From a bacterium (GTDB taxonomy: Bacteria > Patescibacteriota > Minisyncoccia > Phycocordibacterales > UBA918): a stretch of DNA of 64,000 nt. The first letter of the stretch is position 1, and each line of letters begins with the position of its first letter. This document shows positions 18,536 through 64,000 of the stretch, piece after piece. The position numbers and the translations under genes were made by a program. The notes beneath the pieces are model-generated. The model was given only the letters and a program-made list of their open reading frames with translations. It made no database searches and had not been told where the DNA came from. The stretch lies in contig PAMC01000016.1 of assembly GCA_002710785.1 (NCBI GenBank), positions 13,435 through 77,434 on the forward strand. The letters are read 5' to 3'.

Positions 18536-21500
18536 TTAGAATTCTGGTGTCACCAAGTACACAATATCGCTTGAGTAGTCGCCCGGCGGCTGTGTGCCAG
18601 TAACCACTATTCTGTATATTATATCCTCACTCTCTGTTGCTGGCACGGCACTGTACATGATTTCTTCTGGTGTAGTACTGGCCGCAGCGTAGGTATCGTC
18701 AAGGGCAAAGCGGCTGGTATTGCCTGAAAGTGTATCGTCACCAGCGTGGTACCCGAAACAGCTCGTGAGCCCAGAGCAACCAGCGCTCCATCCGCTTGGT
18801 GCGCTATTGGTGCCGGCAATGTCAGCAATGGTATCAGAATCGCTATTCTGCAGTTGTTGGCGCGTGTAGAGTTGAGTCCGATAGCCGCTGACAGCATTAG
18901 TATCGATTGATAAGCGTTGTCCAGCAATAGCATCACTGTCAGTTACCAGCGAACCGAATGGAATGGTCGTGGCAGTAGTGCTCGCAGTCGTCACCACACC
19001 TTCGGTTGAGGTGCCGGCTGGTAAACCGTTAACCGTAAAAGCGAGACTGCCCGACTCACCTACCAGCGATGGGTAGGTGGCTCCACTATCAAGTGGTACG
19101 ACGTCTCCGTTTGCTACGTCGTACACCCGGAAGTACCACACCTGACCGTAGTACCCAGAAATATTTTGGTACTGAATCGTAAACTCAAATTCAGTGGCGC
19201 TAAGCGCGGTATGCGTGTACCCAGTTAGCGTTAGATCCGATTCGTTGTGAGTACCACAGCCGACGCCCACACCAGCGTTACAGATATCGGTATTTGTTAA
19301 CACCTTTTCATCGATGATCGCATTATCGACGCCGGCGCCATCGTCGTAGCACCAGACATCGCTACCACCACAACTACCACTGTTTACCACATCGTTAACG
19401 GTGGCGAAGCCAGCTGAGTCAGAGTACTGGAGGCGGAACCGGGCGTTGGCTTGTTCGAGATTGTTAAGCTCGTCGACAATAACGCGCAGTTTAACGGTAT
19501 TACCTTTTTGAACTTCGACAGGTGCAACATTCTCAGCTGCTAGGTCGGTGCTCGGTGTGAGAGAGGTTTCATCGTCGTACCAACGCCAATCTGACTGCAC
19601 AGGTGAGTACCCTTCAGTGCGCAGCGAAGGATAGGTGAGGTATTCGGCGAGCTGCGTGCCATCATCTTGTACAACCCGGAAGCAGTAGTCGGAGCGTTGT
19701 GTTGCGCCATTGTGCTGAATCACCCAATCGTACTCAACATCTTCGTCTGCATTTACACTGTACGGGTTGGCAGTTGCTGAGCCACCCTCAACATACCGAC
19801 CAGACCGGTCGGAGACCGCCAAAAGTGTTTGGCCACCGGTTGGCGGGTTGGTACCAATAGCTGCATTGTCTGCAACCGCACCGTTATCAAAACCGCGCCA
19901 GATCGATCCGCTCCCGGGGGCTCCAACATCGTTCCAGCTGCTGATTGCAGAGCAGGTGGTTTCTTGTAGACCGTACTGCAACTTAAGTGACTGGAGCGTT
20001 GCAGGTAGCGTGCCGTTTGTGATGAGAAGTGAGGTGCGTAAGCGAATTACGTCACCGTCACCAACCGGTGTGTCGAGTACCGTGATCGGACTATTTTCAC
20101 CAATGCTGCCGGCGCCAGGGGGCCAGGCGTCGGTGGGGGTAAGGGCGTTTGTGTTGTCGTACCAGCGGTAGTCGTTTTGGCGGATTGAGACGTCTGCGGC
20201 CGGCCACTCCACAACCATGGCACGATACGAAAGGGTGCCTTGCGTGTCTGAACGCCAGATCTCAAAGGTGGTGGAGCTCGTAAGATACAAGCCAGCCATA
20301 ATTTCCGGGAAGTTGTTGGTCGCGCGATCAATAGTCGTGTTACCGAAAATCGCCGCATTATTGATGTCGTTTACACCAACCGCATCAAACGACACTGAAG
20401 TAGTGGCTGGTGCGGTACCCCCGGTAAAGAGTCCGCTCGCTGGAAAAACGGTCATCTCCCCTGCTCCGTTTTGAATATTTTCTATAACCCAGACTACCGC
20501 AGTATGGGTTTGGGCCATATCTGCGCCCGAGTCGAGCGAAAATGAGACCACTCCCATACTCGAGAGCCACGCCTGTACACCGTAGCTCGCCTGTTGTGAG
20601 GTAAACGTGTGCCGTTTTTGTGTCTCCAGAAAAGCTTTGGTGACAGCACTGACCGGCGTGATCGACTCTGTTTCGGTGACGCCGGCGCTTGAGAATTCAT
20701 GTTCCACTCGCTGCACCTTCCAGTTGCCACCTAAAAACTCCACAACAGCGTAGCTAAAGTCCGCACTGGTGTTGGTGGCACTTCTCGTAAGCACTACCTG
20801 ATTGGTGGAGCTCGACCAAGCGGCGGTTGCACGGTTGTTGCTAAAATTACCACGCGAAGCGTTAGTCATACGAGCTCCGGTAATAAACACAGCAATATCG
20901 CCATCGTCGGTAATTGGATTTATGGCTGAGCTTGTGGCGTACGTTTGTCCCGAGCTCATGCTAATAGTTCCTACGTCTCGCACAACCATTTCGTTGTCGG
21001 TACCAGGATCACCAATAAACTCAATGATTTCCCAGGCCACAAACGTGTTATTCACAGAGTCGGTATCACGCGTAATAGTAAAACTAGTTGGTAAGTTACT
21101 GGATGTGATGTACGCGGAAACATCGTCTGGATTTTGGTTACCGGCGCCGGTGTCACGACCAGCACCTGTGTGGTGGAAGTTGGTAATACGAACAAACGCC
21201 ACACTCGTTGAGGCGGGGGCGTCGTAGTCAACGCCGGCCGTAAGTGTAAGACTCGAACCACTGATGACGTTCGTGCCACGCTGCGTCTTGTAGTCACGGT
21301 TAGTTTTGGTGCTAATTTCTGGATACACATCGTACGCCACGAGAGGAGTGCCGTTCTCAACGACCCGGAAACAGAAATCAGTCTCAAATGGCGTATTGGC
21401 GGTAGTTGTGATTGAGAACTCAAAATCAACGTAATTTGTGCTCGAGAGAGTAGTGGTTGGTGTGCTAGCATCAGTTTCGGCTATACCTCCGTTACTGGTT

Positions 21501-24500
21501 AAGAAGTCTGCTTCTTCGTCACTTACACCACCATCAGCCACTGGAATATCAGTTGTATCACTCCCGTCAGTAAGAAACGTGGAGTCGTACATATCCCACG
21601 AGTCATTAGCAAAGGCATCGACGTTGGTCCAGCTGGCAACCACATCACATGTTGTCTCTCTGATGCCGTACTGCAACGTGTACTGGACAGGAACAGAAGA
21701 TGTGCCACCCTCGTTAGAGAGCCCGAGACGCAACCGGTACGGCTCGTTCTTGTCGATGTCGAGCACTGCCGTGTCCTCCGTCCCGCTGGTGGCTGAGCTA
21801 GCGGTTGTTTCAGTGCCGTTATCATTACGCCAGTGGTAATGCACCTGGGTAACAATTGCCCCTGAGACACTGGTGGTGCTCGCAATAGTAACCGCCGTAC
21901 TTGGCGCCACCGATGCGCCGCCCGAGACGGTAATTTGTGTATTCGGGTTAGTAATTTCAAGCTCAATTGTGTCCCCGTTTTGGGCAGTGTTCTCGACGTC
22001 GTACACAACATACACACATAGCGCACTGGTGGTCGAAATACCAACACTGTCAGAAAACGATGCGTTACCGTTGGCGGCGTCAAAGTTGGCGACGGTACTC
22101 CCAAATTGGGACTCTGTACCAGCGTACGATTCGCTGGCGCAGTTGTACGGTGCTGAGGTGTCGCTGTCGTAATACAGCTCAATATTAGCAACATCTGTGT
22201 CGGCATCAATGGTACCCATCTCAGCGATGGTAATGGCCGTGACATTGCGTGCGTCACTAGCCTCGGTGATAACAAACGCGCCACCGCCGTAGATGTCGAC
22301 ATCGCCAATTTCTGCATTCGCCACCTGGTTGCCAACACTGCTCACGTTAACATCAGCGGCAATGGACGCAGTTGGGTATTCAATATACTGACCGAGTACG
22401 GCACCCCCCTCACTAAGCCTAAAGCAGTAGGTGCTTCCCTGTGAAGCTGTGGTCGACGCAACGAGTGAAAACTCGTACTCCACAAATTCAGTACTGGTAA
22501 GCGTAATGCTGTTGGTTTGTGATGTGGTGTCGAGCAAGCCACCGTTTGGCGAGGCAAACGAAGAGTTTGGGTTGCTTACACCCCCACTGCTCGTCGCAAT
22601 GTCGGTGCTGTCGGTGCCGTTGGTGATAAAACTGGAATTGTGCATGTTCCACGCATCGTCTGCGTCGTCGACCCCCGTCCAGGTGCCCACATCTCCACAG
22701 GTCGGGTTAGCTACTCCAAATTCGAGCTCAAAGTTTGTACTTAGCGTTGACGTTGAGCCTTCGTTGGAAAGGGCGATACGCAGACGTCGAGGTTGATTGC
22801 GTGGTAAATCAACCAGGCCGGTATTTTCCACACCAGCGGTAACAGAGGTAGCACCACTCTCGTTACCGTTGTCATTGCGCCAATGGTACCCCGTTTGTTG
22901 AAGATCGGGCCGCACCACGGTGGTGGCACCTGAAAGAGCGATGGCAGTGTTAGGTTTTGGGGTGATGCCGCCGGTTACCGAGACGTCTGTACTCGAATTG
23001 CTAATTTCTACATCAATCGTTTGTCCGTCGTCAGCCGATCCGAGGACGTCAAGCAGTACGTACACACAGAGCGTACTTGAGGTGGCAACCGAAACCGAAT
23101 CCACGAACGTTGCAATACCATTAGCGCCGTTAAAACCGTTGGTGTCAGTCGCGCCGTACTGCAACTCTGAACCGTCATAGCTCTCACTCGAGCAGTCGTA
23201 GGGAGCTGACGTATCTAATTCGTAGAGCAGGCGAATATTGGCAATGTCGTTAGCACCATCAACCGAACCGTCTTCAGTGATCGTAATACCCGTAACCGAG
23301 CGACTGCTGTCGAACTCTGTAAACACGAAGGTGCCGCCGAGGTAGTTGCTCGTAGTGCTTCCTCGCACCTCGGAAATTTGCGAACCAATACTCGACACCG
23401 TCAGTGGTGGCGTCGGGTCGAGCATGGTTTCACCACGAATATCAAGCGGTGTGAGCGCATGCCAGCTCACGTAGAGCCGTTGGTCGGAGCGGTAATTAGT
23501 GTCGACGCCGTAGAAGTCGTCAGTGGCGACATTAAGTGGACCATTGTCGATACTCCAGCTGCCCATGGCACTGGTTGAACTCGCCCAGTACACGTTAGCG
23601 GAGGTGCTGCTGCCAATTGTGCCTCGCGCACCGTACGCAACGTAGACATCATCGGTGTTAGCGTCAACCGCCATGGCCAAATCGGTAATACCTCGACTAT
23701 CGTTGGTGAGGATGTCAGCCGTTTTACTCCAGCTGCCACCACTGTACTTGGCGGTACGAATGTCGTGGTCGGCGGCCGTAAAATTATTGTTGTCTGCAGT
23801 ATACGCCAGGTGAACATCGCCAGTGTCCGGGTCGACCACTGCAGTCATGCCTACTTCGTACGTCGCGCTCTCAACCGCCGACGCATCAATCGCGGTCCAC
23901 GATGCGTCCCAACTCGTGTTGTCCCACACCTTCGAGCGAACATCATTAGCGTTACGGTCGCGGTCAATGACCATGATGTCGCCACCTAACAGTGGCACAA
24001 GAATCTGCATGTCGCCTGTAACTACATCAAGCGGGTTAGTACCAGTTTCTGACCACGATGTCGACAGGTCACAGTTGCTGCTACACTCAACAATAAAACC
24101 ATCCGTGTTATCGGTTAAGCCTGTGTAAATGGTGCCGTCTGTCCCCTTCGTAAGTGCGGGTTTTGCTGCGCCGTGGCTAATAGTTGGTGTCTGGCCAGTG
24201 GTGGCATCGGTACCTGAGAGGCCGACAAGCAAAGTGTCGTTGGTGGTATCGAGGCGGTTGTAGCGGATATCTTCTCGCGCACTGTTTTGGTGCATGGTGA
24301 CAATGTGGATGTAGTCACCAGTGTCCCCCGGCGTCCACTGATCGTACCAGACTGAGATCGAGCCACAGTCGCTAAAGTTATTAAACTGCGTCGCACCGCC
24401 CCAAGTAGCACCGCCATCAGTGGTTTTTGAGTAGTAACAGGTACCGTTGGTGATGGTATAAAACCGGTAGCCAGTTTGATCATCGGTAAAGACAGTAGAA

Positions 24501-24697
24501 AAACCAGATTTTTGGTGCCGAGTCGGTTGGTTATCTGCGTTGTTGGCAATCACAGCTTCGGCAGCAATTATAGGCCGAAAGGAGAAGAAAAGCAGCCCAA
24601 ACAGAAGTACCATCAAGCACGAAAACCAAATCCGTCTCTCAGTCTGAGTCCATATGCAACAAAACTCACGGACGTTGCCGAATATCGTTAAATTCAC
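18536..24697 (-). CDS. giant secreted protein (2053 aa): N-terminal Asp-box (BNR) beta-propeller, four copies of an uncharacterised about 200-aa module, conserved C-terminal domain
   Basis: Signal anchor; Asp-box SKTTDGGATWGG and S-x-SWS repeats; modules starting YHWRNDNG (x2), YRWYDN, DWRWYDDE, each with R-L-R, L-Q-Y-G/S, C-F-R and Y-P motifs; C-terminus ...YSSDIVYLVTPEF. Confidence 0.8.
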   Translation of the reverse strand: MNLTIFGNVREFCCIWTQTERRIWFSCLMVLLFGLLFFSFRPIIAAEAVIANNADNQPTRHQKSGFSTVFTDDQTGYRFYTITNGTCYYSKTTDGGATWGGATQFNNFSDCGSISVWYDQWTPGDTGDYIHIVTMHQNSAREDIRYNRLDTTNDTLLVGLSGTDATTGQTPTISHGAAKPALTKGTDGTIYTGLTDNTDGFIVECSSNCDLSTSWSETGTNPLDVVTGDMQILVPLLGGDIMVIDRDRNANDVRSKVWDNTSWDASWTAIDASAVESATYEVGMTAVVDPDTGDVHLAYTADNNNFTAADHDIRTAKYSGGSWSKTADILTNDSRGITDLAMAVDANTDDVYVAYGARGTIGSSTSANVYWASSTSAMGSWSIDNGPLNVATDDFYGVDTNYRSDQRLYVSWHALTPLDIRGETMLDPTPPLTVSSIGSQISEVRGSTTSNYLGGTFVFTEFDSSRSVTGITITEDGSVDGANDIANIRLLYELDTSAPYDCSSESYDGSELQYGATDTNGFNGANGIATFVDSVSVATSSTLCVYVLLDVLGSADDGQTIDVEISNSSTDVSVTGGITPKPNTAIALSGATTVVRPDLQQTGYHWRNDNGNESGATSVTAGVENTGLVDLPRNQPRRLRIALSNEGSTSTLSTNFELEFGVANPTCGDVGTWTGVDDADDAWNMHNSSFITNGTDSTDIATSSGGVSNPNSSFASPNGGLLDTTSQTNSITLTSTEFVEYEFSLVASTTASQGSTYCFRLSEGGAVLGQYIEYPTASIAADVNVSSVGNQVANAEIGDVDIYGGGAFVITEASDARNVTAITIAEMGTIDADTDVANIELYYDSDTSAPYNCASESYAGTESQFGSTVANFDAANGNASFSDSVGISTTSALCVYVVYDVENTAQNGDTIELEITNPNTQITVSGGASVAPSTAVTIASTTSVSGAIVTQVHYHWRNDNGTETTASSATSGTEDTAVLDIDKNEPYRLRLGLSNEGGTSSVPVQYTLQYGIRETTCDVVASWTNVDAFANDSWDMYDSTFLTDGSDTTDIPVADGGVSDEEADFLTSNGGIAETDASTPTTTLSSTNYVDFEFSITTTANTPFETDFCFRVVENGTPLVAYDVYPEISTKTNRDYKTQRGTNVISGSSLTLTAGVDYDAPASTSVAFVRITNFHHTGAGRDTGAGNQNPDDVSAYITSSNLPTSFTITRDTDSVNNTFVAWEIIEFIGDPGTDNEMVVRDVGTISMSSGQTYATSSAINPITDDGDIAVFITGARMTNASRGNFSNNRATAAWSSSTNQVVLTRSATNTSADFSYAVVEFLGGNWKVQRVEHEFSSAGVTETESITPVSAVTKAFLETQKRHTFTSQQASYGVQAWLSSMGVVSFSLDSGADMAQTHTAVVWVIENIQNGAGEMTVFPASGLFTGGTAPATTSVSFDAVGVNDINNAAIFGNTTIDRATNNFPEIMAGLYLTSSTTFEIWRSDTQGTLSYRAMVVEWPAADVSIRQNDYRWYDNTNALTPTDAWPPGAGSIGENSPITVLDTPVGDGDVIRLRTSLLITNGTLPATLQSLKLQYGLQETTCSAISSWNDVGAPGSGSIWRGFDNGAVADNAAIGTNPPTGGQTLLAVSDRSGRYVEGGSATANPYSVNADEDVEYDWVIQHNGATQRSDYCFRVVQDDGTQLAEYLTYPSLRTEGYSPVQSDWRWYDDETSLTPSTDLAAENVAPVEVQKGNTVKLRVIVDELNNLEQANARFRLQYSDSAGFATVNDVVNSGSCGGSDVWCYDDGAGVDNAIIDEKVLTNTDICNAGVGVGCGTHNESDLTLTGYTHTALSATEFEFTIQYQNISGYYGQVWYFRVYDVANGDVVPLDSGATYPSLVGESGSLAFTVNGLPAGTSTEGVVTTASTTATTIPFGSLVTDSDAIAGQRLSIDTNAVSGYRTQLYTRQQLQNSDSDTIADIAGTNSAPSGWSAGCSGLTSCFGYHAGDDTLSGNTSRFALDDTYAAASTTPEEIMYSAVPATESEDIIYRIVVTGTQPPGDYSSDIVYLVTPEF

Positions 24698-40799: not shown

Positions 40800-43700
40800 C
40801 TAGTCGGCTGTGGCGGTAAAGGTGTTGATGCCACTGTGTGGTTCACTAGCGGTTCCAAACGGAATAGCAATGCCCCAGTAGAGCGCGTCCGTCACCAGTG
40901 GCGTGCTGGTCGTTGGTTTATTAAGGTCAACCTCAATAGAGCTGCCAATCTCAGAGAGTGTAATACAGGCCGTACAGGTAGTGTGGTCAAAGGATGAGGT
41001 CGCAAATTTCTGCTGCGTTACATCAATGATTGAGACGCCGCCATTGGACATGTCAGTACCCGACACATCAACGTCGAGTGCCTCATTACCAAAGTTACTA
41101 ATGTTTGATACTGGGTTACTACCACTGGCAGTGACACCATTAATGTCGAGTGTGCCGTAGCCAATGAGATTATCAACCGAGATACTGCGTAGCGTGCCAA
41201 CGTCGATTATGCCTGTTGAGGTTTCAAAGTCACTGTTTGTTGCGGCGTCAGCCACTTCAACGTAGGCGTACCACTCTTCTCCCTCATACGGAGAGCCACC
41301 GTCGGTCGGGTCAGTGTGGAAGGCAAAGTCAGCGGTACATGAGAGGCTACAGCTAGTACCGCTACAACCTGAGAGCACACAACCTGTACCAAGAGTCGTG
41401 ACGTAACAGTTGTTGTCGTCTGGTGTACAGCTCGCCCCCACTGTGGTGCGGTAGAAGGTGGTGGTCGCTGCCACAATATCGGCATACCCATTAAGGTCAG
41501 TGACTGTGGTACTTGCTACTACTGGTGTAGTGGTGCCTGGGCTGAGCACTATGTCACTCCCATCGTTAAGCGTCACCACGCCAACCGACGGCGCAAACTC
41601 AAGCGTGAGCTCTGGAATACTGGCGTAGGAGTCAAGTGCCGTGCCGGCGTTCGTGACACGGAAGCAGTACGCATCTTCAGTCGCGTTGCTAGTTAGATTA
41701 AGCGCGTACTCGAGCTCAGTGTAGTACTGTTGGTTGACGTCTACGAATCCGGTCTGGTTATCGGTGTTGCTGACGATCTCACCAGCGGAGAACGTGCCTG
41801 ACGGAATGATAAGATGGTCAGTCGTCGGATCACCACTGCTCACTTGAGTCGTGTTAATCATACAAACAGGGCTCACTCCACAACTACCGGCCGCGGGCAC
41901 CGAGCTGTAACTACCGCCACTCACTGCCTCACACGTTAAGGCGACGCCCTTGCCAGCATACTCTAGTCGAAACTCTTGGTTTGTAATATCGAGTCCTGAA
42001 TTCTCAACCGCTACTCGCAAACGCGCCACGTCACCAAAGTCGTAGCCTGAACCAGCTACCCCCTGCGGTGCACGCCACGTGGCTCCGCCGTCAACCTGCT
42101 CTGCGCCAAAGTACACAGTCGGTTTATTATCGAGTCGTGGGTAGGACACAAAGCTGTCCCAGCCGCCGTAGAAGCCCCAGAACGTGAAGCCAAAGCCGCC
42201 GCTTGTGTAATTAGAATCTGTGGCGGTGGTTGACGCCACGAGCGTGCCGCCGCTGTTGTAGAGCCGCACGTCGATGGTGTCGTCGGTCTGCCAGTCGACT
42301 TCGATCTCGTACCAGCCAGTACTGTACGTGACGTTTGTTTGGTCGAGTACGACTACACCACCTACCAAGTCGGTACTCTCTGCATCACGAACCAAAGAGA
42401 GACGGTCGGTACCCTGTAGCTCGATACACACACCGTAGTTTTCGTTGGTAGTACCTGGTGACTGCACACCAAAGAGTGTACAAGACTCGTCAGATCCACT
42501 CGCGTCCACATACTGACGGTACCGGATAATCTCGCCTTGGCTCACTGTCTGGTCGAAGGTAAAGATACCATCGGTTGCTTTGGCTGTTTCATTACCATTT
42601 GTGTCGAGACCGTTAGAGCCACCCCACGCGTAGGTACTACCAATGTTAAAGAGTGTCGTGTCGCCGCTGTACTCACTTAAACTGCCACTCTCAAAGTCGT
42701 CAACGGCCGTGAAGACGAGGGTGCTGCTACTGGTCGTTGTGGCGGTGAGGTTGTCGTAGTACATGTAGATCTGCGTTGTTGAGGCAGCTGGCAGGCTCGG
42801 TACTTCAACCCACACATCTGCGCTCACGCCGGTGCTAAAGCGCTCGATCCAATGGTCGATCAGTACGGTTCCAGTGCTGTCAGTAAAGCGTAGGTCATCA
42901 AAGTCGGTTTGCATGTCAGAGTCGTACGTCACGCTCAGCAACACTGGCACATTGCTATAGGTGCTGGCATCACCATTCTGCAGCCGCACCCGCTGCCGCG
43001 CATCCCAGTTGGTGTCGTACCACGTACTGGCTACTGCGCCTTCCCCACCGTCGTCGTTACGCCAGCGGTACTCTGTCTGCTCAGTCAAGAGACAGGCGCT
43101 ATCATCCCAACGAATAGAGCTACACGCATCTTCACCATCGACGTCGTAATCCTCACCACTAAGATCACCAAAGTGTGTGCTGAAAATCCAGCTGTTGGTC
43201 GAAGTGGCATCGAGAGTTACGTTGGCGCCACCGGTGAATCCACCATCGGTGAAGACGGCTTCGAGAATGGTCAAACCAGCATTTGCATCAAGCGCAGTCT
43301 GCGGCAGGGTAATCATAGTGGCAGTATTGGTCGCCTGGTTGAAGACACCTCGATCTAGGTCGCTTATGGTTGGGGTACCAACAAACGTCAAGCCACCGGC
43401 TGCCAGATCGTCGAAGGTGTACGTGTCTGCACTGAATGTTCCGCCACTGACAGTGAAGTCATACAGTGTGCTTGCCTCAGCACTCTGGATCGTAGTGCTG
43501 GCGCCAGTGGCGCCAATAATTTCCAAGGTGCCGCTCTCAAGAGTGAAGTTAGACAACGTGCTGGTCGCAAAGGTGACACTCACCGCCCGTGGACTTCCAC
43601 CCAGCGCCACACCGTCAAAGTCAGTTGCGTAACTCCAGTACTCGTTTACGGTCTGACTGACGTACTCACCGTAGATTCTCAGGGCGCCGTCAGAACCAGC

Positions 43701-46700
43701 GTGGTCTTGTGAGTAGATTGAAGACGAGGCGCTCAGTGTGCTCACGAGGTAGTCGCTGTTCCAGAAGCGCACATCGGTATCGCCGATAAGAGTGAGTGTA
43801 TCGTAGGTGTCTCCTGTGCTGGCTTTGGTATTGGCACTAAAATTGGTACCAGCTGCTAAGATCAGCTCGCTATTAGTCCAGGTAGTGTTTGCGCCACCAA
43901 CCGTGTTAGTGAAGACGCCGCCGACATAAAGAGTTTCACTGCTTCCGAGTGTAAACGCGCTAGCGCTCAAGAGACTAAAGTCGCTGGTTGATGTTGCGCT
44001 TGAGAACGTCCAGCCTCCTGTCGCGCTGTTTACTACCACGCGGTAAAACTCGTTGCTGCCTGGATCAACGGTTTCGCCCGTATCGGTAGAGTCGAAGAGG
44101 AGCGTGCTCGTTCCCACATCGAGTGTGCCGCTCGTGGCATCGAGCGAACCGCCAATTGCTGTAGAGCTGCTGGCCAGCCGTAGATTACCAGCAGCAACCG
44201 TCACATCACCCAAGAAGGCGCTCGTTGCATCGGTAACTGTGAAGCTGCCCGATCCGTCAACTTGCAAGCTCGAAAGATCGTTGCCGCCAGCAGTCAAGAC
44301 ATGGGTGCCTGTACCAGTAAGTCGAATGGTGCCGCTATTGTGTGCCACCGTGTCAGACACGACGAAGTCAGTACCGACGGTGAAGGTGCCGCCTGGAAGT
44401 GTTACCGTACCGGTGGCAACCGTAACGCTCGCCGTGGCAGTTGCGTTCGTATCGCTAATACTCCAACTGCCGCTACCTGCAAACTGTATTGTTGCAGCGT
44501 CAGATCCACCAAAAGTGATCGTGTTGCCCGCGTCTGTCGCGGTAAACGCGAGCACTCCGCCGTTAGCGTCGAAGCTACCGCCCGTATTAGTGAAGTCATT
44601 GGCAAAGGTGCTCGTCGCCGCTGGCAACGTCACGTCGCCATTGGTAATGGTGACGTCTCCATTCGCGGCAAAAGTAGTGTCGTTAACGGTCCACGAACCA
44701 GTACCATTGAAGGTGAGCGCACCAAAGGTTGCGTCATTGCTGTCGATTGAGCGACCGCTCTGGGTGCTGGTAAAGGTTAGCGCAGCGTCATTGAGCGCCA
44801 GTGTTGCACCAGCGCCACTTAGGAGCTCGCCGCCAATCGTGTGCGACTCACTGCCTGCGCCGGTAAACGTGGCATTGGCTTGTAGTTCGAGTGTGCCGGC
44901 ATGACTAGCAGTTCCTGTACTGAGTGTGACATCACCGTCAGGGGTAAAGGTCTTACTATCCCACACAATGAGTTTTGTGTCTGTCGGGAAGGATACCGTG
45001 TTGGTACCGCCAGTTGTTGCAGTGAATGGAATGTCAGCATCGTCACTACTATCCCACACAGCCAGGTCAGCAATGCGTATAGCATCCGTGCTCTCGTGTC
45101 GCACAATCACGCGGTCGACGTAGACATCCATGTTGAGAATGTTTGAAATCGGATCAGCAGTCACTGTCGCGCCGGCCTCACTCTCACCGTCGATGTACAC
45201 GATGATACTGTCAGACGGTCCAAAGCCGACATTAGTAAAGGTGTACGCACCAGTACCCGAGGCACAGGTAGTGCTGGCGCTCGTTAGACCAGCTACCACC
45301 AACCGCACATTCGGGGTACTGCCGTCACACTGGGTGTACCAGCTAGTCCCTTCGTCATTGTAGATATTTCCGGAAATTGAGATAAGCGCAGCTGAGTCAC
45401 TCCACACGATTTCGCCAGGATCACCTGAGTCGGCGTCAAACGCCTCACCGTCGAGGTTACCGGTGTGGTTTGTGAAGCGCCACGATGAAACCGAAACTCC
45501 CGAAGTGGTGACGTTTACCGGGCTCGTCACACCACTCTCGTTAAAGGTGTTGCGATCAAAGTTCTTGGCTGGGTTCGCGTCGATCACGCTGCCAGCCACT
45601 GTCATCGCACTCGCATTATTATCGTCAACCAGCCAATCAACATTTACGATATTCACCACTGTCGGTGTGCCCGTAAATGAGAGACCCGCGCTATCAACGT
45701 CACGTGGTTCAGCGTCGAGCCATTCAGTGCTCGCGGTACCGCCAATAGTAAAGCTAAACTCGCCACTGCCTTGGTTTTGGATTGTCGTCGACGCGGTTGT
45801 GGAACCCATAACGTCGAGGCTACCACCAGTATACGTGACGCTTCCGCCCCCTTCGACGTACACATCAGCTTGGCGTGGTGAACCAAGGGCGGCACCATCC
45901 CAATCGGTGGTGTAGCTCCACGAATCGGTGTACGAAGCATTGCTGTACGCTCCAAAGATATATAGATCACCAGCAACGTCGTTGTGATCCATCGAGTAAA
46001 GTGAGCTGCTCGCAGAAATGGTCGTCGTGCTGTAGCTACTGTTCCAGAATCGTGGTTGAGTGCCATTATCGACAACGAGCTCAGCGTAGTCATCAGCGTC
46101 AGTCTTAGTATTTACCTCATACGCCGTATTACCAAACAGCTTCAGAACGGAATTGCTCCAGTTCGTATTTGCCCCGCTGACAGTGTTGGTAAACACGTCA
46201 CCAACTGCCAGCGTATTGCCTGGCTGTAGTGTAAAGGTGAAGGCGCTCGTCAAACTAAAGTCACCGGTAGTAGTTGCGGATTCGGTAAAGAGGTAGGTGC
46301 CGCCGCCGGCCACGCTCACATCGTAGAAATCGGAAGCGCCAGCCGCGACCGACGCCGTACCGGTCGCTTGCAAAAACTCTACCAAGCCGCCGTTGGCCGT
46401 GAAGACGCCGTCGTTATCGTAGCTACCGAATAGCTGCAGGCTGCTGGTATCACTAGCCTCAAGCGTACCGCGAGCGCCAATGTAAGTATCGCCCGCTACT
46501 ACCGTTAATGGATCATTGGTGTCGAGCGTGAACGTAGTCGTACCGCGACTGCCGACAGTTAGATCACCAAACACCTGCAATCCTGTTACCGGGGCTGTGA
46601 CAGCAGTGCTACCCGTTGCTGCTTCGACAGCAAGGTCGAAGTAGGCCGTCCTGGTTACGGTACTGTTGCCTCCGTACGTGATACGACTGGTGTCTTCCAA

Positions 46701-49700
46701 GAAGGTGCCGTCCTCCACAAATACGGTACCGTCACCCGTCAGGTCCCACTGTGAACTCCCAGCGTCTAAGAGGTGCCCAGAGTCGATGGTAAGTCGATTG
46801 CGCACCGTCGTGGTTGCACTACCAAACGGTGTCGTCACTTGAGTAGCGGTCACACCATCACCGAGTACTAAGTTGTAGAACTGCCACGGGGTGGTGCCGC
46901 CTAAGGTATTGGTGCGATCAATCTCCACCGTACCATTGACCATGGCCACTGTGCCGTTGCCGGTGAAGTTACCGTTGGTGATGGTTATATCGCTCGTACC
47001 GCTGAGTGTACCTGTAGCAACAGTGAGATTATTAATCACCGTAATTGGCGTTTGTACACCCCAGCCACCACCAGCTCCAGTAAACGACACGGCCGTAAAG
47101 GCTAGGGTACTGCTCGCTGCACTGGCAATTGATTGACCAGTGGTGGTGGCTGTGAAGAGCACAGTTGAACTCGGCGTATTGAAGGTGGCAGCAGTATCAA
47201 GATAGAGCGAGCCGCCGATAGTGAGCACTTCGGTACCGCTCATGTTTAAGGTGGCAGATGGCCCAAGCAAGAGTGAGCCATCTTGGGTAGATCCGCCAGA
47301 GCCAGCCAGGGTGATGTCGCCATTGCCGGTAAAGGTCTTACTATTCCAAACCATCAGGCCGCTACTCGCGCTTACAGTGAGTGAGTCTGGGGTCGTACTG
47401 GTAGAGACGGTAAATGGCACATCTCCATTATCTCCACTATCGAAGATGTTCATGTCCGCAATCGAAAGCGGGCTGATGTCTTCGTGTCGCACGATAACTC
47501 GATTTTGGTAGAGATCGAAGTCACTGATACTGTCGAGAACTGACACCGACGCTGGTTTAAGCGCAAACTGCACAACATTCACATCGTCGGTAGAGCCGCC
47601 AGTTGCGGTCGCGTCGCCGGTTGCACCAGCGCTCGTTTGTAGTTGCGAGGAGAGAAGCAGGTTGCGACTTCCTTGTCGAGCATCTTGCAGAATGGTGCTC
47701 CATGGTGACGTCGGTCCAACGAGATCATTGTCGTCAATGACGTACCAGGCTGCCAGCACGTACGACCCGTCGTTAGTGGTCGTAATACCAGGCGCAACTG
47801 GTGAGCTAGTATTCTGCTCGTTGCTCCAGACTGGGTCAGTATCAAAGATATCGCTGGTGTCTACCCCGCGGTACGCCCCAATCCAAGCGCTAAACTCCTC
47901 GGTGCCGGCAGTATCGTTATTCGTAAAGGCGTACGTCTCAGCTTCAGTGGCGGCGTTGGTAATCACTCGCGACCAGACCGCTGTGTACATATCGTTGCCG
48001 GTAGTCAGTCCGAGCTCCCCTTCTAACTGCCAACCAGACGGTGCGCTAATGTCAAACTCGTCTTCACGAGCAGTAATAGCAATCAACACATCACCATTCT
48101 CCACCTCGGGACGCTCGACAGTAAAGGTCGCACCGTTGGCCACCGTACCCACCGCAGTTCGCTGGTCTACCAAATTAATAGTTTTGTACGGTTGTGCTGC
48201 TGCACCAAGCGGTGTCTTGGTTACAACTGCAGCAATTGCGGTACCAGTAGCGGTTGGGCTCGCGTCCGGGTTAAATGACATCTGGATCACCTGTGATTCT
48301 CGACCAATAGTGACGTTACCAAACTGCGCCGTACTGGTCGCGCCTGCTGGTCGGGCCACACGCGAGACAACGCCAAGGTTATGGTTGGTGCCGTCTACAA
48401 CGTTTTGTGCCCGTGTCGCCCAATTACCGCTCGGTACCGCCACGTCAGTGTCGTTAAATACGTGTGCAGCTGCAATCACCAGTGAGCCGTCGATCGTAGT
48501 GGTGGCAGTGGGTGCTATTGGATCGTACTCGTTTTGCAACTTACTCCAGTTAGTTGTTGCCGCAAGCGGACTAGCTGTGTCCACGTTAAGTAAGCTGCCC
48601 ATCCAGTAGTTGTACGTCTCGTTGTTGTCGGTAACTGGGAAATCGTAGCTCGCTGGCTCGGTGCTCGCATCAGCCACCACCTTGTACCACGCGCCACTCG
48701 CAAGATCATCACCTGTCGTGTTACCAAAACTATCTATCGCCGTCCAACCGCCAAGCGTATTAATGAGCGGCTCATCGTCTTTACCGGCGATGAGGACCAA
48801 GACGCTATTATCAACCACGGTTGGTCGCGTTACGTTCATCAGGTTACTGGTGACTGTTCCAGTACCACTCGTCTCATCGAGAATTGCCACGTTTACTTCA
48901 GAGCTGCTGGCGGTACTACTTAAGAAGGCGGTAATCTTAGGTTCACCAACGTAGGTCACGCCAGCTACTTCGTATGCACCCGTTGCTGCATCACACGACG
49001 TTTGGTAGGTCGTGCCACCATCAATTACCACCGTGACGACGGCTGTACTATTGTTACAGACTGGAGCACCCATCGGCGTCACACCATCATCGGCGTACAC
49101 TACGCCACTGATACTAATGTTGTAGTTACTATCGTCCCACTGGATAGAGCCTGGGTCGCCATCGTCGGCGTCAAACGCCTCACCGTAACGATCGCCACCG
49201 CCGCCAGTAAAGAGCCAGTACGTACTCGGGGTACCGTCAGTGGTGACGTTAGCGCCGGCTGCTGTAGAAACCGTACTGGTAGCGTAAAACTCATCCGGTT
49301 GGAGGAAGTTCCTAAACTCTGCGTCGATCCAGTCTGTGCCCTGGGTACTGGTAGCAAAGCGCAGCTCATCGACCTGAATCTCACCGTACGTACCGCCCTG
49401 GTAGCGACCAATCTTGAGGCCAGTGTTGGATGGATTCTGTGATGAGCTAATCTGCGTCACTGTATCTTGCAGCGTATTATCTTCGTAGATGAGGTTGTTC
49501 TCACCATCGGTAGCTCGTCCAATCGTGGTGAAGTGGTGCCAGATAGTGTTGTTGTACGGGCTCACAGTGTACTCACCGCCACTGGTAATACCAAAGAAGT
49601 GTCGCCCGCGGTTGGTTAGATCGTAGTTCGGCATAAACGCGAGGTAGGTGCCGTTGTTGGTGCCGTTACCGGTACCAAACTGCCACAGCGCACCAGTGTC

Positions 49701-52700
49701 AGTGTTGGTCATGAAGTAGAGCCCTGAGGAGATGAGGTCATCGCCAGAGGTCCACGTCCAGCCGGCAGATTGGAGCATTACGTTGCTGGTGGTGGTGTCT
49801 ACCGCCTGACCCAGCTGGCCCGAAGTTGTTGCTGCGGTACCAACCGCCGGGAGGAGAGTGCGGCCGTTGCCTGTTTCGTCGGTAATACTCACGGTTGGAT
49901 CCTCGTTGAAGTGGTACACCGCCTCGTAGTTATCCCACACCGCTTCTGAGCCGTAGCGATAAGTAGCGGCGTACGCTGAAGCCGTTGGATTGTTGTAGTG
50001 GATGTAGAAGGTAGTATCCTGCGCGGCACTCACGGCTGGGGCTAAGAAGTGGAGCTCACCGGTCTGGGTTGTAGTATTAATTTCGACCACATCAATCGGA
50101 AGTTCATTGGCGCCAGCTGTAGTTACCCGAATGTCAGCACCGTCACTTTTAACATTACTCCAGAAGTCACTGCCGAGACTGGCTAGATTGACGTAGACCG
50201 GATACTCAGTGAGCGTGCTCAGGGTGCTGCTAGCTGGAACAGTGAGCGTTAGTTGACTGTTCCAATCTGCACTGTAAACATTGGTGGCCGTGGTTGAGGC
50301 AAACGACACGCCGGTAAACACCGAAGATGGCTGCGCGTTCATGGTCGCTGCGTCAACCGTAATACCCGTGCGTCCAGCTGGTACCGCTATGTCAGTTTGT
50401 GTGAGCGTACTGATCGTGGTGCCATTGCGCAACTCAATACCTTCTGCACCCATCCCGCTAAAGTCTGCGTATTGACTCGCAAAGGTGGCATTTTCAAGAT
50501 TAAGTTGGTAGAGACCAAACAATACGGACACGGTGGTGGTGCTAGTCGCATCACCGAGGACCGATAACGTAGTACTGGTGCCGAAGGTGAGCTCAGAGCC
50601 ATTACCAATTTCTACCGTAACCGGCCGCTCATTACCGCCTGTAAGATCGGTACCATCAAAGTCGGTAGCATAACTCCAGTGTTCGGTACCACTCATACGC
50701 TGGTACTCACCATAGACGCGCAGCAAACCATTAGTGCCACCAAAGTCTGGGAGATACAGCGATGAGGTATCGAGAATGGTCGACGTAGCGATGGTTGAGT
50801 TCCAAATGACGATGTCGGAATCGTTAGATACCTGAATCGTGCCGTAGTCGTCACCGTCGTCGAGGCGGCCGGTAATTGTGTAGTCGCCACCAGTGAGAAC
50901 AATAGTACTGTCGGTCCAGGTAGTACTAGTACTAGCAAAACTATTTGTGAAGATGCCGCCAACGGTCATAACCGCGTCAGGGGCGAGTGTGAATTGTGTA
51001 CCGTTAACCAACCGTGCGTCATTAACAACATCAACATTGCCGCTCGGAGTCCAGTCACCACCCGCGGCATCAAAGACCAAGTTGTAGAAGCTGTTGTCTT
51101 CGATGCTGATGGTTTCGTTACCAGCTGAACTATCAAAGGTGGTGGTAGCGGTATTAGCATCAAAGAGACCGTCGAGGGTGGTCATTGAGCCACCAATGGT
51201 TAACGTGTCATTTGGCGCGATAAGCTCAGAACTCTGCACCACCACGTTACCGTCTATATCGGTAGTGGACTCTTTTAAGATAAAGCGCGGTACCGCGTCA
51301 GTGAAACTCTCACTGCTCGCAGCTACACCATAAAACGCTGTTGGTGTGTTGCCGTTGGTGTACTCAGCATCAATCCAGGCAGTAGATGGCGTGGTGCTGC
51401 TAAAGCGCAGCTCGTCAATCTGAATATCCATGTAGACAGTAGTCTGGTACGCACCAACCCGCAAGCCAGTATTCGAAGGATTCTCTCCATCGGCTGTCTG
51501 TGTCACCGAGTCACGAAGAATATTATCCTCGTAGATTTGGTTAGTCTCGCCAATCGCAGCACGACCGACGGTAGTAAAGTGGTGCCAAATAGTACTGTTG
51601 CGCGTGAAGCGGAAGTCGCTACCGGACGTCTCACCAAATCGGAAGTAGCCTCGATCGCCACTGTCATACCACGGTAGGTAGTGCAGGTAGGTATCCTCAC
51701 TACCGCCCACCGCTACACCAAACTGCCACAATGCACCCGTATCGACCGCCGACTGGAAGTACCAACCAGATGAAACCATGTCTTCTCCGGCTGGCCAGGT
51801 CCAACCGGCGTTCTCGAGTCGAACATTGCCGCTAGTGGTATCAAGGGCTGTGCCAAGAGTACCGGTCGTTGTGGCTGGTGTACCAATGGCTGGAGTAAGG
51901 TCGCGGCCGTTGCCTGTTTCGTCGGTAATACTGATAGTTGGATCCTCGTGGAAGTGGTACACCGCCTCGTAGTTATCCCACACCGCTTCTGAGCCGTAAG
52001 CACTATCGGAAGCCGGTGCAGTTGCGTCGGCGTTTGCAAAGTAGATGTAGAACGTCGTCGTTGCTGTATCACTGATACTATCGGCTAAGAAGTGGAGTTC
52101 GCCGGTCTCACCCACCGCATCAAACTCAACCACATCAACCGGCAACGCAACGAACCCACTGCCGTTTGCGACACGAATGTCAGCGCCATCGCTCGCCACT
52201 CCATTCCAAAAGTCGGAGCCAAGGGTACTGAGGTCAACGTAAACCGGGAAATCACTAAGTGAGGCCTCTACCGTGTTTGGTGCAATCGTGAGCGCTACCC
52301 GTTCGTTCCAGCCACTGCCATACCACGGCAAGCTGCTTAGGGTTCCAAACTGTACATCATTAAAGGCTGAGCCATTAGTGCGTACTTGTTCTTCGTTCGT
52401 CGAGCTAAAGAGGACCAAACCGCCATTGTTAGAGAACGAGCCACTGCCAGTTACCGTGAGCGTGTCGCCAATCGACAGATTGCCGCTTGGGAAGGTAACG
52501 GTACCGTCACTTATAGTTACTGCACCAGTAGCGGTGGCGTGCGTATCGGTAATACTCCAGCTGCCGCTGCCGTCAAAGGTGACATCATCTAAGATATTTA
52601 AGAAGGTGGTGCCGCCTAACGTAACCGTTTCTGCTGCACTACTTGTAAACTCGAGCTCAGCGTTGTTGTGCATGAACGTGCCTTGGTTGAGGAACGACCC

Positions 52701-55700
52701 ACCAACAGTTAGTTTTGTCGTTGGGAAGGTAACGGTACCAGTTGCAACAGTGAAGTCATCATCAACCGTAACTGCCGCGTCACTAAAGTACGGGGTAGTA
52801 GTTGCGTCATTGAGTGTCAGGGCGTAAAACGCTGAGCCACCGGTGGTAATTTGGTGCGACGGCGCATCAGGGATAATGTCCGGCACGTACGTCTCAACGC
52901 TTGAGGTAGCGTAAAACGCTGTCGGGTCACTCTGGTTACTGTACTCAGCACTAACCCAGTCGGCGCCGCGTGTGCTCTGCGCAAAGCGAAGCTCGTCCAT
53001 TTCACCCTCCCACGAACCAGCGGTGGTGTAGCGACCGAGCTGAAGCGCTCCGCCAGATGGATCGGCAGCAGTTTGTGTCGGGTTATCACGCACAATGTCG
53101 TTGATGTAAGTAATCACCTGCTCGCTCGTGCTGGTTGGGCCAACAGTTGTGAAGTGTTGCCAGTTCACGGTGTCACGTGGCGTAAAGTCAAAGGTAAACG
53201 CGCCAGCCGTCGAGCCGAAACGGTGGTAGCCGCGCTGCGTGCCGCTGTACCACGGCATGAAGTTCATATCGGCGCCGGTACCCCACGACCACAATGCCTC
53301 GCTGCTCGCCGCGCTCAGCTTGTACCAACCCGACGACTCGAGACGATCGCCACTTGCCCAACTCCAGCTGTTGGTCAAGATACCGCTCGAACCGACGAGG
53401 GTAATGGCTGTGCCGAGTTGGCCGGTTGAGGTGGCGATATCCGCTCCCGTGATAGTAAGATCGTACCCATTGGCAGTAGCATCAGGCACAATAGTATTTA
53501 CGCCAGTCGTCGCCACTTCAAAGTGGTACACCGCATCAAAATCTACCCATACCGCCTCACTGCCGTAGGTACTAAACGATGCCGGCATACTGGCACTTGG
53601 ATTATTGAAGTAGAGGTAGAACGTGGTGTCGCCAGTACTGCTTGCAGATGGGGCCAAGAAGTGCAACTCACCTGTCTGCGTGTTGGAGTTAATGCTTACG
53701 ACCTCAACCGCAATTTCTGTCTGGCCGTCATCGGTAGTCATGCGAATGTCGCCACCATCGCTTTTAACTGCTCCCCAGAAGCTGCTGCCGAGCGTGCTTA
53801 AGTCAACGTAGACAGGGAAATTCGTGAGACTCGAATCAATCTCACTGGCCTGTAGCGCAATTGGTAGTCGCTGGGTGAAGTCAGTGTCACTGTACCAATC
53901 ACTTGAGCCTGGGATAATACCTGGGTACGTACGATCATCAGGTACGATCTCAACTTCACTGGTACCGGCGATAAACGAACCGCTATTTGTCCAATCACCA
54001 CCAACCTGAATCAGGGTATCGCTACCACCGTTGAGTGTGTCGTTAGCACCGATGTTGACGTCGTACGCAGCAGCTGCCGTATCGACTACAATCGTCTTGC
54101 TTGCCCCATCAACGACCACAATGCCAATATTTTGCAACGAAGTTGAAGCATTGAGATCTTGCCATATCGAACTGCCGCTACCGTCAAACGTAGTGGTACC
54201 AACACCACTCCACTGTGCACCCGCGTAGGTGCGCACATCACCAGCTACTGCAATGCTGCTCGTGCCTCGATTAAATGTACCGGCGGCAACAATGAGGTTG
54301 CCTGAGAGATCAAGGTCAGCGCTAATGTCCCACTGCGCCACACTGGTTGAAGTGCCGAAGGTGAGGCTGTTAAAGGCCAGTGGGTCGGATGGGTCAATAA
54401 TGGTTTCGGTACCAACAAGTGCGTTAAAGGCCACCGTCGCCGCTGCCACCGAGGTAGTGGCCGTGTTAATCCAGGAACCAGACACCTCAAGTGTGTTACT
54501 GTCGAGCGTCAGAGTGCCGTCATTAACAATGTCGTGAGTAGTAATAACTGCCGCAGTACTGCTCGACGGTCTAAACTCTTGGTTGGCCGCCACGTAGATA
54601 TTAAAATCACCACACGTACCCACTGCACAAACGTCGAGATTATTAGCCAGATCGACGTTGAAGAAGATATCCTCGTTGGCGGAGATACTATTGTCGTAGA
54701 GCGCTAAACCAGACACATCAACGGTTCCTGTCTCATCGGCATCAAACGCGAGATGGCCCTCATAAAGCGTCACACCAGTGATGTCACCCAAGCCGTCGTA
54801 GACAAAGGCAGTAACCGCCTCGTCTGGATCAGCTGCACCATCGACCCATACCTGCACCGTCTGGCCGGCAAACGCGGTCACGTTTGGCAAGCTCCAGGTG
54901 CCACTAGCGATGGTGCCGGTAGCGCTTAAGAGCACACCGTTAACTGCTGCGCGGACGGTACCACTCGCTACCGGAGTGATCCGGTCGTTCTCAAAAATGT
55001 TGCCGCTCATGGTCACACCCTCACTCCACTCTACTTGCCAGTCCTGCACCTCAGGGCAGTTACCGCCGCCACAAGTAAGCGTCGCGTACGGTCGAATAGT
55101 GTCGTAAATATTGATGTCGACGTTGGTAAGGTCGATTGGGCCTGTTGTCGTACCAACCGAGTTACCGGGGATAGCGCTGTCCGGAATGAGTGCCCAAGTG
55201 TCGGCACTGACCTGGTACTGCAGCTGATACACGATATCACTCGTAGCTGGTGTGCTGTCAGTCCAATCAAAATTCTCAAACTTTGGTCCCGCGCCGTCAC
55301 TAAAGATAACCGGCTCACCGGCAATGGTACCTGAGAGCGTGCCCGCGTTAGCGCGCGTTAAGAGCCCTGAGCTCGCCTCAAACGCGATTACCGAAACGAT
55401 CTCCTGCGTGTGTCCGTTGGCACCTAAACCGTCCTCCATGAGACTCAGGAAAATCTGGCTAGCGTTATTGGTACCGGAAGTATCTTTTATACCGAAACCG
55501 CCGTCGCCGCCGTCTTCCGCGTTGTTATGGACGAGCGTCACCTGTGGTGTGCTGCCAAAGCCGGTTTGGAAGCTTTGATTGTGTCCACCCTGACCTTGTG
55601 TATCATCAACGGAATCGCTCGAGTTAAAGGCTTCGAAGTCTGCGCCGTTGATGGTGCCGTCAGCAACATCCATAATGACGTAGTCGACGTCTTCAGCGCC

Positions 55701-63956: not shown

Positions 63957-64000
63957 CGTACCTGGGAATACATTGACGGTCGATACGGTGACGGAGCTAC

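Follow-up and report, generated by a model that had tools for sequence, protein, structure and literature searches.

Patescibacteria account for a large share of uncultured bacterial diversity, and their cultivated members are attached to other cells. Other adhesins offer well-known examples of immunoglobulin (Ig)-like stalk and split domains, and those of RTX adhesins, extender and split domains alike, were reportedly treated in 2024 by Graham and colleagues in Proteins (92:933). Among the closest described systems, the RTX fibrillar adhesins, e.g., AhLap of Aeromonas hydrophila, contain Ig-like extender and 'split' domains (PMC12077191), and in modular type IV pilins a pilin module is fused to functional modules, as described for Streptococcus sanguinis PilB (PMC8179133). 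Units of DUF2341 (PF10102) and LamG/Laminin_G_3 are common in patescibacterial proteins longer than 4000 amino acids (aa), for which a role in adhesion has been suggested (PMC11809585), and very large, mostly unannotated Patescibacteria surface proteins have been repeatedly proposed for host contact (PMC11809585, PMC13059738). Here, we analyzed 64,000 nucleotides (nt) from a bacterium of the Patescibacteriota (GenBank assembly GCA_002710785.1, contig PAMC01000016.1, positions 13,435 to 77,434 of the forward strand), from now on the window, in which two giant open reading frames (ORFs) share a repeated protein module: ORF A (18536..24697, minus strand), of 2053 aa, and ORF B (40800..63956, minus strand), a mosaic protein of 7718 aa as listed, both confirmed here as given in the original prediction made from the sequence. 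We found that the module belongs to a large family, nameless in the libraries queried, whose general kind, the Ig-like repeat or split domain of adhesins and pilins, is already known. We judge it rather probable that the module works outside the cell as an Ig-like stalk unit, probably stapled by a disulfide and also able to host and project other domains.

The module copies were placed by a motif scan together with a profile built from the candidate copies, and the second copy of ORF B was first located at about aa 7275-7464. Since a profile that contains its own targets is circular, it was rebuilt six times with one copy omitted each time, and every time the missing copy was found again along nearly all of its length, with E values from 9.8e-9 (copy A4) to 3.9e-33 (copy A2) for a database of 10^6. 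ORF A contains four copies, all of them full and of ~185-198 aa. Copy A1 (22322..22903, minus strand; ORF A aa 599-792; YHWRNDNG...RRLRI...FELEFG...YCFRL...EYP) gave 166 bits in hmmsearch over profile positions 1-181, with a leave-one-out E of 2.6e-31, and copy A2 (21269..21853, minus strand; aa 949-1143), 43% identical to A1, gave 175 bits. Copy A3 (19592..20185, minus strand; aa 1505-1702), which was used for modelling and is 33% identical to copy B1, reached 199 bits. Copy A4 (19016..19603, minus strand; aa 1699-1894) is of a divergent subtype, with WYFR instead of YCFR plus four other cysteines, and gave 124 bits with a profile of 37 sequences; this subtype was also observed in two homologous proteins (P0003 and P0004). 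In ORF B, copy B1 (57477..58064, minus strand; aa 1965-2160; FAWYQNED...LRLRM...FKLQYG...NYCFRMV...LYP) was recovered with 178 bits and a leave-one-out E of 2.7e-21. The pairwise identity of the window copies is about 16-40%, indicating that they are old and diverged and not recent duplications. The original prediction had set the starts of the four ORF A copies near 22885, 21845, 20180 and 19590, and our boundaries agree within a few codons; its copy near 58045 corresponds to B1, and all of its motifs (NYCFRMV, DYCFRVV, DFCFRVV, AYCFRVT and YHWRNDNG/EYRWRNDDGG) were found by the motif scan. It had also counted at least three copies in ORF B, and here it has to be corrected to two, as the sites near 43073 and 42095 belong to one split copy.

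This split copy, B2, is composed of three consecutive pieces on the minus strand. The strand A piece (43020..43091; ORF B aa 6956-6979, ~24 aa; LLTEQTEYRWRNDDGGEGAVASTW) covered profile positions 2-28 only. It is followed by an insert of ~315 aa (42075..43019; aa 6980-7294), in which DUF2341 was detected by Pfam with an E value of 3.4e-18 and precedes a LamG/concanavalin-like region. The remainder of the copy (41565..42074; aa 7295-7464; ...ARLRV...FRLEYAG...AYCFRVT...SIP) is without strand A and was recovered with a leave-one-out E of 4e-15. In agreement, the site near 43073 (EYRWRNDDGG, aa 6962) has only the first ~25 profile positions, with DUF2341 directly after, and the site near 42095 (TWRAPQGVAGSG, aa ~7288) belongs to the second piece. 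When analyzed with a profile from which B2 had been left out, the contiguous sequence upstream of aa 7464 matched profile positions 17-179 with 98 bits, and aa 6956-6979 spliced to aa 7295-7464 matched positions 2-179 with 116 bits. The increased score and the full-length coverage upon splicing indicated that both sites are parts of one copy, and the spliced sequence, with …EYRWRNDDGGEGAVASTW joined to RAPQGVAGSG…ARLRV…, looks like any normal copy with the YRWRNDDG…ATW signature of its subtype. An orphan strand followed by DUF2341 was also present in the closest relative found (L001), and a B2-like split arrangement was observed in homologues of ~5,600-7,700 aa (P0083, P0148, P0124 and P0127).

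No existing family name was found for the module. The whole ORF A and ORF B products were compared with Pfam-A (2025 copy) and NCBIfam 20.0 at E ≤ 0.01, and nothing was detected over the module. When 37 diverse copies were searched singly against Pfam at E ≤ 1, hits to 21 different families were obtained, one member each and the best with an E value of 0.008, and the profile gave no match among all PDB sequences (best E 0.18). A description of the module was not found in the literature searched. The original prediction had proposed an unnamed module of ~200 aa common to both giant proteins, and this is borne out by the lack of a sequence match in Pfam-A, NCBIfam or PDB; a confident match to a named family was looked for and did not appear. 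The profile search that it had advised returned no Pfam family and 3,871 homologous proteins, and the advised structure prediction and fold search returned a confident model that matched only generic Ig-like sandwiches. The size of the family was established by an exhaustive HMMER search with the six-copy profile against 1.84 billion representative proteins (50% identity): the 3,871 proteins were detected at E ≤ 1e-3, 2,101 of them at E ≤ 1e-10 and 479 at E ≤ 1e-30, with up to 13-20 matched stretches per protein. The best 150 proteins contained 432 near-full-length copies with a median of 187 aa. A word-indexed protein search gave 6 and 13 short fragments only, and the family size was apparent only by the exhaustive profile search.

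The fold was then predicted with AlphaFold2. With the six window copies alone as input, the pLDDT (predicted local distance difference test) was 62. With an input of 37 sequences, i.e., the six window copies and 31 homologue copies with <45% mutual identity, copy A3 was modelled with a pLDDT of 93.3 and a pTM (predicted template modelling score) of 0.90, and the model has eight strands and a short helix, with confidence low in no segment. At the level of fold, and not of sequence family, this model is an Ig-like/E-set beta-sandwich. The Foldseek search against PDB and viral models gave none at E ≤ 1e-3, and the query-normalised TM-scores (template modelling scores) were ≤0.4. The structures matched were TTHA1873 (7wrk), GH3 C-terminal fn3-like domains, the Wzt carbohydrate-binding domain (6o14/2r5o), RhoGDI and a CLIPPER domain (9ifr), the latter being the best match (E 3.6e-3, query-normalised TM-score 0.31). 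Only about half of the module aligns with these generic E-set/Ig-like sandwiches, with an identity of 5-15%. As modelled, the module is an Ig-like sandwich in which about half of the residues lie in family-specific, ordered elaborations. The alignment of 395 copies, on which all residue frequencies given here are based, has the consensus Q..yRWy … RLR … fkLQy … c … WtdVg … DG … E.dw … YcFR … Y..YP.ltt, and the most conserved positions are R40 (98%), R153 (97%), F152 and Y150 (93%), and L59 and E134 (92%). The cysteines at profile columns 68 and 151, which in copy A3 are ORF A aa 1582 and 1672 (positions 78 and 168 of that copy), were both present in 235 copies and both absent in 155, with 5 discordant copies, and the number of cysteines was even in 390 out of the 395. 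This paired presence and absence suggested a disulfide, consistent with an extracellular location, and one disulfide probably staples most copies.

The proteins that carry the module are of three types. Those of the ORF A type have a signal peptide, an uncharted N-terminal region, and modules that alternate with other uncharted domains. The ORF B type includes giant proteins of 5,600-7,700 aa with DUF2341-LamG units. In the third type, an N-terminal class III prepilin motif, detected in P0007, P0008, P0009 and P0134, is followed by 10-13 tandem copies with 40-73% mutual identity; the gene for P0008 adjoins those for a prepilin peptidase, a PilS-like kinase and other N_methyl proteins, that is, a pilus gene cluster. 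Tandem arrays of 10-20 copies show 49-90% identity among copies. Such arrays within long secreted or surface proteins, which have signal or prepilin N-termini, are what is expected of a fibrillar-adhesin stalk. Regarding taxonomy, the named hits were assigned to Candidatus Paceibacterota (P0013), the Parcubacteria group (P0030) and Chloroflexota (P0007), the P0134 cluster corresponded to a SAR202 'prepilin-type N-terminal cleavage/methylation domain-containing protein', and all the remaining named hits were 'hypothetical protein'. A genome scan with one genome per species, which samples the A3-like subtype only, gave 105 relatives. Among the 80 of these 105 loci that were listed, the informative labels were nearly all from metagenome-assembled genomes of Patescibacteria (Kaiserbacteria, Nomurabacteria, Paceibacteria, Parcubacteria, Lloydbacteria, Azambacteria and the automatically labelled 'Saccharibacteria'), and ~10 had an uninformative label ('bacterium' or 'uncultured bacterium'). 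We also observed an A3-type module in three contigs labelled Acidimicrobiales, Azotimanducaceae and Gammaproteobacteria (L022, L023 and L067); these labels may be binning errors rather than true occurrences.

Split copies were recurrent among the homologues. Of the profile matches in the best 150 proteins, 47 were without at least the first 12 profile positions, and 16 of these 47 had an orphan strand-A motif of the Q..YRWRNDDG type 190-490 aa upstream, the chance expectation for such motifs being ~0.02 as a rough estimate from residue frequencies. Splicing the orphan strand to the truncated copy added 12-21 bits, and random fragments of the same protein added 0-3 bits on average. The inserts are complete domains of varied kinds, such as a BNR_2 propeller in P0018, a Kelch propeller in P0074, and DUF2341 plus Laminin_G_3 in P0099 and P0137, and several others were without a Pfam match.

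Collectively, these data suggest a model in which the module of ~185 aa, Ig-like and with long ordered loops, would serve as a stalk unit in very large, adhesin-like surface proteins of Patescibacteria, and also in oversized type IV pilin-like proteins of Chloroflexota. A subset of the copies would be split hosts: the chain would exit after the first strand, fold a complete and often lectin-like domain (DUF2341 plus LamG, a BNR or Kelch propeller, or other), and come back to complete the sandwich, so that the inserted domain would project off the protein axis. In the window, the four copies of ORF A are all intact, and of the two in ORF B one is intact and the other is split, with a DUF2341-LamG unit as its cargo. 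The extracellular location is suggested by the signal peptides, the N-terminal anchor of ORF B orthologues, the prepilin motifs and the even cysteine counts; the stalk role by the tandem arrays of 10-20 copies; and the scaffold role by the orphan strand-A motifs, the splice gains and the complete-domain inserts. We infer from these data both the stalk and scaffold roles and the completion of the split copy in three dimensions, and likewise host-cell adhesion, because of the episymbiotic lifestyle of cultivated Patescibacteria and the lectin-like cargo.

Several points weigh against this proposal. The family is described from sequences and a predicted structure alone, and the split-copy reading, i.e., an interruption after strand A with the fold completed on return, comes from sequence only; taxonomic labels exist for few of the hits. 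The 16 cases of orphan strands were chosen by motif, so the splice score gain is partly circular, and some random control fragments scored comparably, probably by hitting strand A of sister copies. The cysteine counts ignore the shared ancestry of the copies. Moreover, the copies of ORF A, only 16-40% identical and interleaved with other domains, would fit specialised roles just as well as that of a plain spacer.

In the main rival reading, the module is itself a lectin or carbohydrate-binding domain, whose long variable loops would recognise glycans on the host-cell surface, and would not be mainly a spacer. Loops modelled with confidence beyond the Ig-like core account for about half of its 190 residues, insertions and deletions are concentrated at profile columns 17-24 and 97-120, and there are conserved aromatic and charged positions (W74, Y150, F152, R40, E134 and R153); in addition, the ORF A copies represent four distinct, conserved subtypes with fixed positions in orthologues. 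However, arrays of 10-20 near-identical copies are typical of stalks and not of binding tips, and the split copies already carry lectin-like domains, which would make a binder host redundant. Weighing both sides, we consider it unlikely, though still deserving of attention, that glycan recognition is the main task of the module.

A covalently cross-linked mechanical domain like those of Gram-positive pilins and adhesins, whether of the CnaB/CLIPPER isopeptide or of the Thr-Gln ester-bond kind, seems very improbable. That the best Foldseek match was a CLIPPER domain agrees with it, as do the Gln at column 3 (82%) and the Thr at column 173 (60%), which are placed at opposite ends of the domain. 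Nevertheless, in none of the 184 profile columns did Lys exceed 50% or His 27%, which indicates that the isopeptide and ester residue sets are absent; the TM-score to 9ifr is 0.31, and the conserved covalent feature is the cysteine pair instead. Judged by residue conservation, membership in the CnaB/CLIPPER isopeptide and Thr-Gln ester-bond groups was rejected. The idea that the repeat is an artefact of a composition rich in Thr, Ser, Gly and Asp plus chance short motifs deserves practically no credence: both proteins do have a high content of T, S, G, A and D, and identity is as low as 16-20% between some of the copies, but this reading is refuted by the leave-one-out E values of 1e-8 to 4e-33, the collinear, full-length matches over ~180 profile positions, the thousands of homologues and the confident fold prediction. 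The Ig-like stalk unit with a hosting capacity is the reading we prefer. A broader version of it is that the module is the signature scaffold of lineage-restricted (Patescibacteria and Chloroflexota) fibrillar adhesins and giant modular type IV pilins, with the cargo nested in its split copies (LamG, BNR and Kelch propellers, and unknown folds) determining the host cell of the episymbiont; this is offered tentatively and is, on balance, doubtful. If true, the sequence of the module could be used to locate the host-recognition domains of uncultured Patescibacteria.

Regarding the layout of both proteins, all large ORFs of the window to the right of ~15.9 kb are on the minus strand. ORF A has an N-terminus that resembles a signal peptide (…RRIWFSCLMVLLFGLLFFSFRPIIAAEA), and from there the protein is organised as the N-terminal signal/transmembrane segment, an uncharted region of ~390 aa, two successive pairs of a second module, here termed X, and the main module, another uncharted region of ~360 aa, two main modules, and a C-terminal domain of ~160 aa. 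Scanning every region of ORF A against Pfam at E ≤ 1 gave zero matches. In the orthologues P0015, P0017, P0026, P0020 and P0013 (2001-2073 aa), the four module positions are unchanged, and ORF A is a member of a conserved family of 2001-2073-aa proteins with four copies at fixed positions. The N-terminal ~390-aa region (23378-24562, minus strand; ORF A aa ~46-440) is conserved in the orthologues P0013, P0015 and P0017; it has an Asp-box-like motif, SKTTDGGATW, and looks propeller-like as judged by eye, and at E ≤ 1 it was matched neither by Pfam nor by any PDB sequence. The X module, an unnamed unit of ~160 aa, is found ahead of both A1 and A2 (22904-23380 and 21854-22321, minus strand; ORF A aa 440-598 and 793-948). 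It shows the pattern …ITI.E.G..D….ANI.L.Y..DTSAPY.C.SESY.G.E.Q.G…LCVYV..DV…, contains its own cysteine pair, is kept in the orthologues of ORF A and was not matched by Pfam at E ≤ 1. A distant relationship between X and the main module was not detectable by hhalign (probability 2.2%) and was rejected. In the orthologue P0013, a true copy of the main module sits where ORF A has an X module.

ORF B is built from DUF2341 plus LamG-like units, Ig/fn3-like units, Thr/Ser/Gly-rich repeat segments of unassigned fold and the two modules. We observed at least six DUF2341 plus LamG/pentaxin-like units, at aa ~800, 1150, 3350, 3850, 4550 and 6980 (window nt about 61550, 60500, 53900, 52400, 50300 and 43000), three Ig_Rha78A_N/fn3-like units near aa 2150-2900, and several long Thr/Ser/Gly-rich repeat segments recurring near aa 3700-6900. 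The frame of ORF B is without a stop up to nt 64000 (63957-64000, …SSVTVSTVNVFPGTV upstream of the listed GTG start), and the orthologues P0148, P0111 and P0108 have ~45 extra N-terminal residues that include a hydrophobic membrane anchor. Both results indicate that the N-terminus is just beyond the window and that 7718 aa is an underestimate; the listed GTG is probably not the real start. A class III prepilin motif was not found in ORF A, ORF B or the other window ORFs examined; some pilins do carry the module, but the proteins of the window are not among them.

Between and beside the two giant genes, a run of ~15 co-oriented, minus-strand genes was observed at 15917-40780. Most of their products begin with signal peptides, like ORF A, and several carry cohesin, dockerin, fn3 or bacterial Ig domains: three to four are cohesin-like, one is a dockerin/DUF4215/Big_6 protein, and one is a fn3/purple-acid-phosphatase-N protein. 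A MacB-type ABC transporter pair (FtsX and ABC) is also encoded there. Along with ORF A and ORF B, this gene run forms a surface-protein island of ~48 kb, and the cohesin-dockerin pairing in a patescibacterium may merit separate attention. The contig of L001 (ENA ERZ1714332 contig_782, 993,488 bp) is syntenic with the ORF B end of the window, and its gene order is the same: DUF2341, split module, fn3/Pur_ac_phosph_N, ABC, FtsX and dockerin. The giant gene of L001 is fragmented into dozens of short ORFs, which looks like frameshift errors of long-read assembly rather than true pseudogenes.

With the module defined, thousands of such proteins could be annotated in part, given the 3,871 representatives at 50% identity, and the split copies directly flag candidate ligand-binding domains. 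Its presence in prepilin-type proteins of Chloroflexota links giant surface proteins with pilus-borne adhesion. As for the modular pilins, P0007, P0008, P0009 and P0134 likewise start with a class III prepilin motif that is followed by the module; when compared with PilB, described as bimodular (PMC8179133), they are far larger, with 10-13 tandem copies in 2000-2500 aa. The DUF2341-LamG unit shares giant proteins with the module but is a separate domain, the cargo nested in the split copy. As in RTX adhesins, a beta-sandwich is repeated along a giant surface protein, here as known from sequence and model, and, as in the RTX split domains, some modules appear to be interrupted directly after the first strand by a complete domain of a ligand-binding type. 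Unlike the RTX extenders, the module shows no similarity to BIg or other Pfam Ig families, and it has ~185 aa versus ~100. It contains a cysteine pair, and no calcium-binding motifs were identified, although no search was aimed at calcium sites. Pfam detected no family of the RTX type in ORF A or ORF B, and both have N-terminal signals, that of ORF B by homology; the Sec or prepilin signals of the module proteins are N-terminal, whereas RTX adhesins have a C-terminal RTX/type I secretion signal. The hosts also differ, being Patescibacteria and Chloroflexota for the module. The resemblance to the RTX split domains is, accordingly, one of design and not of membership, and there is no new principle in how the module is designed. 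It is nonetheless distinct from the known systems by being double the usual size, by its own motifs and cysteine pair, by its lineage-restricted distribution, and by its Sec-dependent and prepilin-type carriers.

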